Positions 11,228 to 15,478 of a stretch of 64,000 bases of DNA are shown here, in pieces. The stretch is from contig VHCN01000007.1 of the NCBI GenBank assembly GCA_016871675.1, positions 19,126 to 83,125 on the forward strand. Direction: 5' to 3'. A program made the position numbers and the translations under genes. This stretch comes from Verrucomicrobiota bacterium (GTDB lineage Bacteria; Verrucomicrobiota; Verrucomicrobiia; Limisphaerales; VHCN01). Position 1 is the first letter of the stretch. Each line of letters begins with the position of its first letter. A model generated the notes under the pieces. It did no database searches. It worked only from the letters and a program-made list of their open reading frames with translations, and was not told the origin of the DNA.

Positions 11228-12535
<1,308 letters not shown>

Positions 12536-12626
12536 GGCGGCAGTGCCCCGCACGCAGCGGTGGATCGCCGAGGCTCGATTTGAGTCTTTCTACAGCAACA
12601 CACGTTCATCTAAGCTAGCGTTCGAC

Positions 12627-13997
12627 ATGACATCCAAGTCCAGACGCGCCGGATTGCTTCTTAGTGCGATGCTCGCGCTGCAGACTGCGGGCGCGGGCCG
12701 GGTCGCAGGCGCGGAGGCGGTGACTTACTTCGGGGATGTGGAAAGGATATTCCGCAATCATTGCGTGGAATGCCACCGGGTCGGCGGCAACGCGCCGTTC
12801 GCGCTCGTGTCGTTCGAGGACGTGCGGCGGAAGGCGAAGACCATTCGCGAAGTGGTCGAGAAGCGCATCATGCCGCCGTGGGGTGCGAGTCCGCAGCACG
12901 GGGCCTTTGTCAATGACCCGTCGCTCACGGCCAAGGACATCGCCAAGCTGGGGCGTTGGATCGAGGGTGGCATGGAGCGCGGCGATGCGGCGCGCGCCCT
13001 GCCGCCGCCGCCGCCGGGGGCCGAATGGCAGATCGGGACACCCGACGTGATCTTTGAGACTGAACCGGTCGAAGTCCCCGGCGAAGGACCGGTGCCGTAT
13101 CGATACGTGCGCCTGCCGACCAACCTGCGTGAAGACCGGTGGGTCGAGGCGACTCAAATCCTCTCCACATCGCCGGAGATCGTTCATCACGTTCTTGTCT
13201 TCATTGAAAGGGCGGCACCACCCGCGCCGGGCGTGACCCGGCCATGGACACCTCCATTTGACCCGACCCGCCTGCTCGAAGGTTCTGAACCCGGCGAGGC
13301 ATGGAAATGGATCGCCAAGTTTCAAGACCACCTAAAGGACTTGCAAGTGGGCGGCGGCGGCGGCCTCAATGGCAGCTTTGCTACTTCGCTCTCCGGTGGT
13401 CGTGGCATGAACTTCCCGCCAGGTCGCGCCAAGCTCCTTCCCGCCGGAGCCACCCTGACGTTTCAGATTCATTACACGCCCGTCGGGACGAAGCGTGAAT
13501 CCAAGACGCGCATCGGCCTGCGCTTCGCCAAGGCCCCGCCGCGCGAGCCGTTGGATTCCCGTTCACTGGCCACGGTCGCCTTCACGATCCCGCCCGGCGC
13601 GAAGTCGCACGAGGTCAAGGCTACAAAAGTCCTGCCGCGCGACGCGTTGCTCGTTTCATTGCGTCCGCACATGCACCTTCGCGGGAAATCCTTCCGCTTC
13701 ATCGCCGAGCAACCGGACGGGCGGGAGGAAATCCTGCTCGATGTTCCGAAGTGGAATTTCGAGTGGCAGGTCGAATACATCCTCGCCAAACCGAAGCTGC
13801 TGCCGCGCGGCACGCGACTGCGCGCCCACGCCACTTACGACAACAGCTCAGGGAACCCGGCCAACCCGGACCCGACGAAGGAGGTTTTCTTTGGACTCCA
13901 GAGCCACGAGGAAATGATGATCGGCTACTACGAAGTCGTGTGGGGACCGGACCCGCGGGCCGCGTCTGCCAAAGGCGCGGTGCGCCCTGCGCCCTAG
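12627..13997 (+). CDS. Secreted fusion: mono-haem cytochrome c domain + PHM/DBH-like type II copper monooxygenase domain
   Basis: Signal peptide [23 protein letters not shown], then a CVECH haem-binding motif in the [10 protein letters not shown]...MPPW context. It continues with [27 protein letters not shown] and [10 protein letters not shown], which give the HH...H...HxH...M copper-ligand pattern of peptidylglycine alpha-hydroxylating monooxygenase / dopamine beta-hydroxylase. Confidence 0.7.
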
Positions 13998-15478
13998 TAG
14001 CGGTAGTGCTCCGGCTTGTAGGGACCTTCGACCGGCACGCCGAGGTAGTCGGCCTGTTTCTTGGTGAGCTTCGTCAGCTTCACGCCGATGCGCTCGAGGT
14101 GCAGGCGGGCGACTTCTTCGTCGAGATGCTTGGGCAGGCGATACACGCCGACTTTGTTCGTGTCGTGGTTCTTCCACAGGTCCAATTGCGCGAGGCATTG
14201 GTTGGTGAAGCTGTTGCTCATCACGAAGCTCGGATGGCCGGTGGCGCAGCCGAGATTCACTAGACGGCCTTCGGCGAGCAGATAAATCGTGCGGCCGTTC
14301 GGCAGCGCGTATTTGTCATACTGCGGCTTCACGTTGATGCGCTTCACGCCTTTCAACGTGTTGAGCTTGTCCACCTGAATCTCGTTGTCGAAGTGGCCGA
14401 TGTTACACACGATCGCCTGGTCCTTCATCTTGAGGATGTGATCGAGCGTGATGACGTCGCAATTGCCGGTGGTCGTCACGTAGATGTCGCCCGTGCCGAG
14501 CGTGTCTTCGAGCGTGGTGACTTCGAAACCTTCCATCGCGGCTTGCAGCGCGTTGATGGGGTCAATCTCGGTGACGATGACGCGCGCGCCGAATCCGCGG
14601 AGCGAATGCGCGCTGCCCTTGCCGACGTCGCCGTAGCCGCAGACGACCGCGACCTTGCCGGCGATCATCACGTCGGTGGCGCGCTTGATGCCGTCCGCAA
14701 GCGATTCGCGGCAGCCGTAGAGGTTGTCGAACTTGGACTTGGTGACGGAGTCGTTGACGTTGATGGCGGGCACGAGAAGCTTGCCCTGCTCCAACATCTG
14801 GTAAAGGCGATGCACGCCGGTGGTCGTTTCTTCGGAAACGCCTTTCCAGTCTTTCACGACTTCGTGCCAGAAACCGTGGCGTTCCTTTGCGACGCGCTTG
14901 AGCAGCGCCTTGATGACGGCGACTTCGTGGTTGTCGCTCGGCGTGTTGACCCAGGTGTCGCCGTTTTCGAGTTCGTAGCCTTTGTGGATGAGCAGCGTGG
15001 CGTCGCCGCCATCGTCCACGATGAGTTGCGGGCCTTTATTGCCGGGATGCGTCAGCGCGGCGAGGGTGAAGTTCCAATACTCTTCGAGCGTTTCGCCCTT
15101 GTGCGCGAACACGGGCGTGCCGGCTTTGGCGATCGCGGCGGCGGCATGGTCTTGCGTGCTAAAAATGTTGCAACTGGCCCAGCGCACGGACGCGCCGAGT
15201 TCCTTCAGCGTCTCGATGAGAATCGCCGTCTCGATGGTCATGTGCAGCGAACCGGTGATGCGCACGCCGTTAAGCGGCTTCTGCGGGCCGTATTTCTTGC
15301 GAATGGCCATGAGGCCGGGCATCTCGTGCTCGCAAACTTCGATGGTTTTGCGGCCCCACTCGGCGAGCGAGACGTCACGGACGGAGTAATCCGGGGCGGC
15401 TGGCGCGATGGGAGAAGAACTCATATCGGTCGTGGTTGCGGGTTTCGTGCGCGGGCGGGGGGCGGTGAGTGTGGGCAT
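13994..15478 (-). CDS. ahcY: Adenosylhomocysteinase
   Basis: [35 protein letters not shown], a Rossmann GYGDVGKG motif, and a C-terminal ...YKPEHYRY. An alternative start is the ATG at 15424. Its stop overlaps the stop of the convergent gene ending at 13997. Confidence 0.95.

Follow-up and report, generated by a model that had tools for sequence, protein, structure and literature searches.

Introduction

PHM (peptidylglycine alpha-hydroxylating monooxygenase, the catalytic core of PAM) and DBH (dopamine beta-hydroxylase), the animal copper enzymes behind amidated peptide hormones and noradrenaline, serve as textbook examples of non-coupled binuclear copper monooxygenases, in which the long-range transfer of electrons from the CuH to the CuM copper and the activation of O2 are still debated. 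Both have been studied almost exclusively as disulfide-rich, glycosylated, ascorbate-dependent animal proteins. The gene addressed here lies in a stretch of 64,000 nucleotides from a Verrucomicrobiota bacterium (GenBank assembly GCA_016871675.1, contig VHCN01000007.1, positions 19,126 to 83,125 of the forward strand), referred to throughout as the window, and encodes a protein in which a c-type cytochrome is joined to a PHM/DBH-like two-copper module. Such a fusion had been proposed in an earlier sequence-only reading of the window. The proposal is now borne out by fold comparison with Foldseek, by profile-profile comparison, by the register of the copper ligands and by the invariant CxxCH...M of the haem domain, and both the architecture and the homology to PHM and DBH are almost certain. 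One paper (PMC8812541) divides the clan of PHM and PNGase F into a eukaryotic branch, PHM, and a bacterial one, PNGase F. Full-text searches of the literature found no paper on bacterial PHM-like proteins or on a cytochrome-PHM fusion.

PHM (structures 1PHM, 1SDW and 4E4Z) shares with the window protein its two jelly-roll domains, a CuH site of three histidines and a CuM site of two histidines and a methionine, all in the same order and register. PHM Y79, Q170, Q272, E313 and Y318 all have conserved equivalents, and the counterpart of R240 in the window protein is R346. The two proteins also differ. The window protein is about 15-17% identical to PHM and is detectable only by profile-profile or fold comparison. 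The disulfides of PHM are absent, the only two cysteines being those of the CxxCH motif, whereas eukaryotic PHMs have several invariant or near-invariant cysteine columns. An N-terminal domain with covalent haem, the presumed reductant, stands in place of soluble ascorbate. Additionally, the window protein is bacterial and periplasmic, has no PAL partner domain and carries a 54-residue insert in its CuH domain.

DBH (human, 4ZEL), tyramine beta-monooxygenase and MOXD offer a further comparison, as DBH too has an extra domain before its catalytic core. DBH has a DOMON domain in this place, and in other proteins the DOMON fold binds haem b. In contrast to that beta-sandwich, the domain here is an all-alpha c-type cytochrome, and the dimerisation domain and disulfides are missing. 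Two other systems are functional analogues. The cytochrome domain of fungal cellobiose dehydrogenase feeds single electrons from a haem to an extracytoplasmic copper monooxygenase, LPMO, but it is a DOMON-like haem b domain in a separate protein, and LPMO holds a single histidine-brace copper in an unrelated fold; here both parts are in one polypeptide. In the cytochrome c-fused three-domain NirK (e.g. of Ralstonia pickettii), likewise periplasmic, the copper enzyme receives its electrons from a covalently tethered class I cytochrome c. NirK has the cupredoxin fold with a type 1 (cysteine-containing) and a type 2 copper, unlike the window protein, which has a PHM-type jelly roll and no cysteine outside CxxCH.

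The PHM/DBH-like core

The window protein was aligned with 84 homologues of about 41-85% identity to it (85 sequences, mean column identity 34%), and an AlphaFold2 model was built on this alignment (mean predicted local distance difference test, pLDDT, 89.8; predicted template modelling score, pTM, 0.88). When the model is compared with the PDB by Foldseek, the top 31 matches are all DBH or PHM, with E values of 3e-13 to 1e-7, probability 1.00 and a target-normalised template modelling score of about 0.59. The alignments extend over about 320 columns and cover both PHM domains. Human DBH (4zel) is the best match at E 3e-13, and the rat PHM structures fall between 2e-12 and 1e-7. The PNGases and the viral double-jelly-roll capsid proteins trail DBH and PHM by at least six orders of magnitude.

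The same homology is seen between sequence profiles. The rat PHM core used as query was confirmed to be 100% identical to PDB 4e4z/1sdw (PAM residues 45-356). It retrieved 120 canonical PHMs, all of them eukaryotic, and no bacterial member; 32 sequences out of these were aligned into a eukaryotic PHM profile. Compared by hhalign, the bacterial and eukaryotic profiles match with a probability of 97.7% and an E value of 2.3e-12 over 253 columns in both domains, with the same residue at all six copper ligands and at five of six second-sphere positions. Against a single PHM sequence, the match is marginal (E 0.057, and 0.0029 for the N-terminal halves) and its register is correct. A HMMER profile of the PHM-like part found nothing among the PDB sequences, and the full-length family profile was swamped by thioredoxin-fold matches from an N-terminal domain of the longer relatives, described below. 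No NCBIfam family was matched by the window protein.

The sequence-only reading had recognised the ligand pattern of the type II copper monooxygenases, and H187/H188/H282 and H348/H350/M430 prove to be invariant and to stand in the PHM register. In the 85-sequence alignment, the invariant histidines are six of the 13 in the window protein, namely the haem histidine and the five proposed copper ligands. The invariant methionines are two of nine (M82 and M430), and the invariant cysteines are two of two, both within CxxCH. This pattern of histidine, methionine and cysteine is far beyond chance. A further sample of 97 copies was taken from 80 species-representative genome loci, at 36-47% identity. 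The CxxCH...M pattern is present in 97 of the 97, and the copper ligands are retained in each primary copy. Taken as a whole, the binding of haem and of two coppers is very probable.

The second sphere follows the same course. Y158, Q280, Q381 and E429 are invariant in the 85 sequences, with rare substitutions of Q280 and E429 among the 97 further copies. Position 434, the counterpart of PHM Y318, is always aromatic (F, Y or W) in the full-length primary copies. R346, whose PHM counterpart binds the substrate carboxylate, is variable across the family, and therefore a C-terminal glycine carboxylate is no obvious feature of the substrate. The ligand spacings of the window protein are 94 residues from HH to H, 66 from H to HxH and 80 from HxH to M, compared with 64/70/70 in rat PHM. 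The first of these intervals is about 30 residues longer than in PHM because of the helical insert of about 54 residues, whose helices in the model are H213-217, H225-231 and H233-239. The insert belongs to the sub-family around the window protein only, and is missing from many relatives and from PHM.

The haem domain

The single haem site CVECH, which the sequence-only reading had noted, is conserved in the orthologues: CxxCH is invariant in 85 of 85 aligned sequences and in all 97 further genome copies. M82, P83, P84 and W85 are all invariant in the alignment. In class I cytochromes c the distal methionine is expected 30-60 residues past CxxCH, a range into which M82 falls, and M82 is the presumed haem ligand. 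The N-terminal domain matches cytochrome c models and no others. Against Pfam, the window protein scores below the gathering cut-offs, both with Cytochrome_CBB3 (PF13442; E 1.5e-4, 22.5 bits, cut-off 27) and with PF00034 (15.5 bits, cut-off 21.3). Across the family, 72 of the 85 members match Cytochrome_CBB3 at E<0.01 (best E 8e-7), and the relative P0130 reaches 34 bits with the cytochrome profile, above the gathering threshold. The weak PDB sequence matches of the N-terminal domain are class I cytochromes c only (OmcF-like, c6 and hydrazine-synthase cytochrome domains). The PSCyt (planctomycete cytochrome) profiles gave no match, either for the window protein (Pfam, E<=10) or among the families matched by the 85 members, and the planctomycete-cytochrome-c-like context that had been suggested for the haem site finds no support in these profiles.

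When modelled in isolation, the cytochrome domain folds into four helices with a pLDDT of 83. In the model of the whole chain, the linker region has a block pLDDT of 92-95, which, together with the pTM of 0.88, suggests that the haem domain and the core are held in a fixed, not floppy, arrangement.

Family size, distribution and accessory domains

A word-indexed search gave more than 3,756 homologues. In an exhaustive HMMER search of 1.84 billion representatives, made with the PHM-like part alone, the module was found in 14,111 clusters at 50% identity with E<=1e-3, and in 9,062 with E<=1e-10. CxxCH is present in 126 of the 145 best new representatives. The other 19 are short and start too near the HxH motif to span the N-terminal region; they look like truncated metagenome fragments. 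Since CxxCH occurs in all full-length relatives, even though the search used the PHM-like part alone, the haem domain is an essentially obligatory partner of the PHM-like module. With one genome scanned per species, at least 599 genomes contain the family pattern, and these represent the Planctomycetota, Acidobacteriota, Verrucomicrobiota, Armatimonadota and Gemmatimonadota, plus a cultured Undibacterium. Undibacterium sp. TJN19 (locus L073) is a cultured carrier. The nearest named relatives are from Verrucomicrobiota and Planctomycetota.

Relatives recorded in the databases as 'redoxin family protein', 'peroxiredoxin', 'mono/diheme cytochrome c family protein' or 'hypothetical' have the same cytochrome and PHM-like core, but most of them add an N-terminal Redoxin/AhpC-TSA domain of the thioredoxin fold. 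This domain is found in 52 of the 85 members by Pfam and in 59 by N-terminal length. It was noted among relatives P0005-P0120 (e.g. P0005, residues 1-215). Its cysteines are near-invariant, in '...CP...' (58 of 59) and '...GC...' (57 of 59), and not in a CxxC motif. The domain resembles the uncharacterised PDB proteins 2ywi, 3u5r and 2cvb. The window protein and its three nearest relatives (80-85% identity) are without it, and relatives of 73% identity or less have it. No match to the domain was found in the window protein, and none is encoded elsewhere in the 64-kb window. Because the redoxin-type domain of most relatives is absent here, the cytochrome and the PHM-like core represent the minimal functional unit.

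A parallel, which may be a coincidence, concerns PAM itself. In NHLRC2 and SOQ1, a thioredoxin-like domain is joined to an NHL propeller resembling PAL, the lyase half of PAM (PMC6107167); in the long forms here, the partner of the thioredoxin-like domain is a homologue of PHM, the monooxygenase half.

Proposed mechanism and alternatives

We propose that the protein is a periplasmic redox enzyme of three modules, comprising a monohaem cytochrome c with His50/Met82 ligation, a proline-rich linker and a PHM/DBH-type core. The haem would take single electrons from the periplasmic respiratory chain, through soluble cytochromes or bc-type complexes, and pass them to CuH, on the assumption that electrons flow in this direction. 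The CuH-type site (H187, H188, H282) would serve electron transfer and the CuM-type site (H348, H350, M430) the binding of O2, the two being separate mononuclear sites. Two electrons would end up on the coppers, one on each. CuM would bind O2, abstract a hydrogen atom and hydroxylate a C-H bond of the substrate, as in PHM and DBH, with the release of water. The haem would thus replace the ascorbate of the eukaryotic enzymes. It is a plausible substitute because c-type cytochromes abound in the periplasm and ascorbate is not made by most bacteria, nor is it known to occur in the bacterial periplasm. This complete scheme, from haem to copper to substrate, seems moderately probable.

A wider proposal can be put forward more tentatively. 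A very large bacterial clade may consist of genuine non-coupled binuclear copper monooxygenases that are wired to the respiratory chain through a fused c-type haem. Its members would be the ascorbate-independent counterpart, and possibly a relative or the source, of PHM and DBH, and would act on an abundant periplasmic or environmental substrate.

Several observations weigh against the proposed mechanism. Of the two Pfam families of the PHM core, Cu2_monoox_C (PF03712) matches residues 334-434 of the window protein at E 0.029 and 14.3 bits, below its cut-off of 23, and PF01082 is matched neither by the window protein (E<=10) nor by any of the 85 members (E<=0.01). The isolated cytochrome domain gave no significant Foldseek match. 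The best were Kustc0563 (E 1.3) and PccH (E 5.4), both monohaem cytochromes c, so that the cytochrome assignment is based on sequence profiles and on the invariance of the motifs. Across the 80 loci, no gene family recurs as a conserved neighbour. The position next to the xylose isomerase gene, xylA, is kept in an 80%-identical relative (L081 1-132), in which the downstream genes differ. The domain fusions of the long relatives are heterogeneous, without a shared theme or a consistent hint of the substrate. Finally, the redoxin/AhpC-like domain of most relatives could be a sign that the chemistry is that of peroxides or thiols and not hydroxylation.

The Pfam results also bear on the sequence-only reading, which had looked to the Cu2_monooxygen, Cu2_monoox_C and cytochrome profiles for confirmation. 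At the level of the single sequence, PF03712 and PF13442 stay below threshold and PF01082 is undetected; at the level of profile against profile, the homology was detected. Neither this check nor that of the haem motif in the orthologues refutes the reading. Family members come closer to the curated profile, as 51 of the 85 match Cu2_monoox_C at E<0.01 (best E 3.4e-9) and some relatives pass the gathering threshold, such as P0163 with 33 bits. Because the single-sequence scores are sub-threshold, the protein is a distant relative of PHM and DBH that stands outside the curated Pfam family.

The redoxin-type domain leads to the main alternative, a cytochrome-c-dependent reductase or oxidase of small oxidants (O2, superoxide, H2O2, possibly nitrite or NO), which would serve in detoxification or as an auxiliary terminal oxidase without any organic hydroxylation. 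Such domains are typical of peroxide and thiol redox defence, the gene stands alone without a substrate-related operon, and the family occurs very widely among the aerobic phyla of soil and water. PHM itself is known for uncoupled turnover, and has been crystallised with nitrite, azide and CO at copper. However, the redoxin domain is missing from the window protein and its nearest relatives, and the residues that in PHM form the substrate and electron-transfer pocket are kept: the equivalents of Q170, Q272 and E313 are invariant in the 85 sequences, with rare substitutions in the 97 copies, and that of Y318 is always aromatic in full-length primary copies. The non-coupled pair of H3 and H2M sites is, moreover, so far known only from C-H hydroxylases. 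A role in the reduction of small oxidants is considered unlikely, with hydroxylation driven by the haem preferred.

A second alternative reverses the flow, such that the copper module oxidises a substrate as a dehydrogenase would, and the electrons exit via the haem to the respiratory chain. A c-type cytochrome is a common electron outlet in periplasmic dehydrogenases, and genes for a PQQ-dehydrogenase with cytochrome lie nearby in 5 loci. This association is weak, at 5 of 80 loci; no member of the PHM/DBH fold is known to work in this way, and CuM, with its methionine, is a site tuned to the chemistry of Cu(I) with O2. We consider the reverse flow very improbable.

Slightly less probable again is a non-catalytic module, either for ligand binding in the manner of PNGase F and carbohydrate-binding modules or for the buffering of copper, with the haem used for sensing, for example. 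The PHM fold is indeed related to PNGase F and to carbohydrate-binding jelly rolls (PMC8812541; 9lwg and 3ks7 among the lower Foldseek matches), and some tandem paralogues keep the haem site with the copper ligands lost. Yet the conservation of both ligand sets and of the second-sphere residues, in a family of about 14,000 clusters, argues for catalysis, and the Foldseek scores of DBH and PHM are better than those of the PNGases by the six or more orders of magnitude given above. A chance resemblance of histidines, methionines and CxxCH in a spurious open reading frame, which high-GC DNA readily yields at length (e.g. antisense 12615..13331) and with which sub-threshold single-sequence Pfam matches would agree, is already refuted by more than 3,700 homologues, 14,111 clusters, a confident fold, the profile-profile E value of 2.3e-12 and the ligand-specific invariance.

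Significance of a haem-linked bacterial PHM/DBH relative

The fold, the ligands and the class of chemistry are already known, and the sequences are already in the databases under (mis)annotated names. What sets the protein apart is that its haem donor is built in, that it is bacterial and that its family is so large. A bacterial homologue that is soluble, free of disulfides and equipped with a haem donor visible by spectroscopy would make a tractable model, in which the injection of electrons could be triggered and followed optically. If the proposed monooxygenase function is true, soil and aquatic bacteria would harbour this enzyme class in abundance, at odds with the picture of PHM as a eukaryotic family (PMC8812541), and the way would be clear to look for a periplasmic C-H hydroxylation that is new and probably widespread. 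Additionally, thousands of database entries would have to be re-annotated that now go by 'redoxin family protein', 'peroxiredoxin' or 'cytochrome c family protein'. The names given to the relatives describe accessory domains only.

Gene, export signal and genomic context

The features of the gene are collected in Table 1. The haem and copper motifs quoted in the sequence-only reading are all present, and their coordinates were checked by translation.

Table 1. Features of the cytochrome c-PHM/DBH-like gene and its product (window coordinates; aa, residues of the 456-aa product)
Feature	Window positions	Strand	Residues and PHM counterpart	Motif or basis
Whole gene	12627..13997	+	456 aa plus stop	from ATG at 12627
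Sec-type signal peptide	12627..12713	+	aa 1-29	basic n-region K4/R6/R7, hydrophobic core, AGA/E cleavage-like site
Monohaem c-type cytochrome domain, all-alpha	12723..13001	+	aa ~33-125	Pfam matches, four helices in AlphaFold2 models
Haem-attachment motif	12762..12776	+	aa 46-50; C46, C49, H50 (proximal ligand)	CVECH
Presumed distal haem ligand M82	12870..12881	+	aa 82-85	MPPW
Short proline-rich linker, cytochrome to CuH domain	12981..13031	+
PHM-like N-terminal jelly-roll domain, CuH-type site	13032..13550	+	H187/H188/H282	Foldseek, hhalign, invariance
Second sphere			Y158 = PHM Y79
HH pair (CuH)	13185..13190	+	H187/H188 = PHM H107/H108	EIVHHVLVF
Sub-family-specific insert, ~54 aa, three short helices and G-rich (GGGGG) loop	13215..13376	+	aa 197-250	PHM alignment gap, model
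Second sphere			Q280 = PHM Q170
Third CuH ligand	13470..13472	+	H282 = PHM H172	FQIHYTP
PHM-like C-terminal jelly-roll domain, CuM-type site	13551..13961	+	H348/H350/M430	Pfam, hhalign, Foldseek
Substrate carboxylate binding in PHM			R346 = PHM R240
HMH (CuM)	13668..13676	+	H348/H350 = PHM H242/H244	RPHMHLRG
Second sphere			Q381 = PHM Q272
CuM thioether ligand M430 (codon 13914-13916), with E429	13911..13916	+	E429-M430 = PHM E313-M314
Second sphere			E429 = PHM E313
Second sphere			Y434 = PHM Y318

The open reading frame on the + strand runs from a GTG at 12543 to 13997, with its first in-frame ATG at 12627. The public gene call for the identical protein (P0001) starts at the GTG, 8 nt past the xylA stop, and is 484 residues long. 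The ATG is the more likely start on sequence grounds, since the signal peptide then sits at the N-terminus and the length of the product matches those of the nearest relatives P0002 (457 residues) and P0004 (451 residues), in both of which CxxCH is at residue 46, as in the window protein. The G+C content of the region is 64%, with many spurious antisense open reading frames such as the one cited above, and therefore the reality of the gene had to rest on homology.

The attachment of c-type haem requires export. A signal peptide had been claimed in the sequence-only reading, and a typical Sec signal does begin the 456-residue product, as assigned by reading the translated sequence directly. In the AlphaFold2 model, residues 1-23 have a pLDDT below 50 and form a single helix (low-pLDDT helix at residues 3-17). 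A Tat signal was considered for the segment SRRAG and rejected, as the F-L-K part of the motif is missing; c-type cytochromes are exported by Sec in the unfolded state, which was also counted against Tat.

The surrounding genes are ordinary housekeeping and carbohydrate genes. Upstream are those for a pyruvate carboxylase, a GDPD phosphodiesterase and, directly adjacent, the xylose isomerase. Downstream are the convergent ahcY and metK, followed by a GH63/MGH1-like hydrolase and a glycogen-debranching-type enzyme of 1456 residues. Positions 1-30000 also encode an outer-membrane efflux protein and a HEAT-repeat protein. The end of the xylose isomerase gene and the ATG are 92 nt apart (window 12535-12627). 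A 73%-identical relative has an entirely different neighbourhood. A functional link with xylA is unlikely; co-transcription with it is possible. The stop codons of the gene and of the convergent ahcY (13994..15478, - strand) overlap by 4 nt (window 13994-13997), which therefore leaves no intergenic room for terminators. No promoter or terminator signal above background was found at the gene, and no rRNA, tRNA or Rfam match in the whole 64-kb window. Given these negative results and the lack of a conserved neighbour, the gene is a stand-alone unit, and its context gives no clue to the substrate. The sole recurring neighbour across the 80 loci is a tandem paralogue.

Tandem paralogues and other fusions

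Tandem arrays of 4-5 paralogues are present in metagenome-assembled genomes of Blastocatellia (L017 4886-10556, L026 1662-9919 and L063 3259-10495). The last copies of two of these arrays (L017 9264-10556 and L063 9233-10495) keep CxxCH...M and have lost most of the copper ligands, with H282 retained in both. The columns of H187/H188/H348/H350/M430 read R,S,L,N,L in the last copy of L017, and H,C,R,H,L in that of L063. Shorter open reading frames of 229 residues (L019 3004-3693 and L024 9266-9955) also keep CxxCH...M; they are without the CuH-region columns and have non-ligand residues at HxH.

Unusual architectures occur among P0121 (1251 residues), P0130, P0143, P0166, P0180 and P0206. The whole unit can be duplicated head to tail within the family, giving two CxxCH and two PHxH motifs. 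Other fusions include C-terminal EF-hand tails, an alpha/beta-hydrolase (esterase/PETase-like) and an N-terminal MBOAT acyltransferase, and in another fusion an N-terminal BlaR1-type M56 domain is combined with a C-terminal CBM48.

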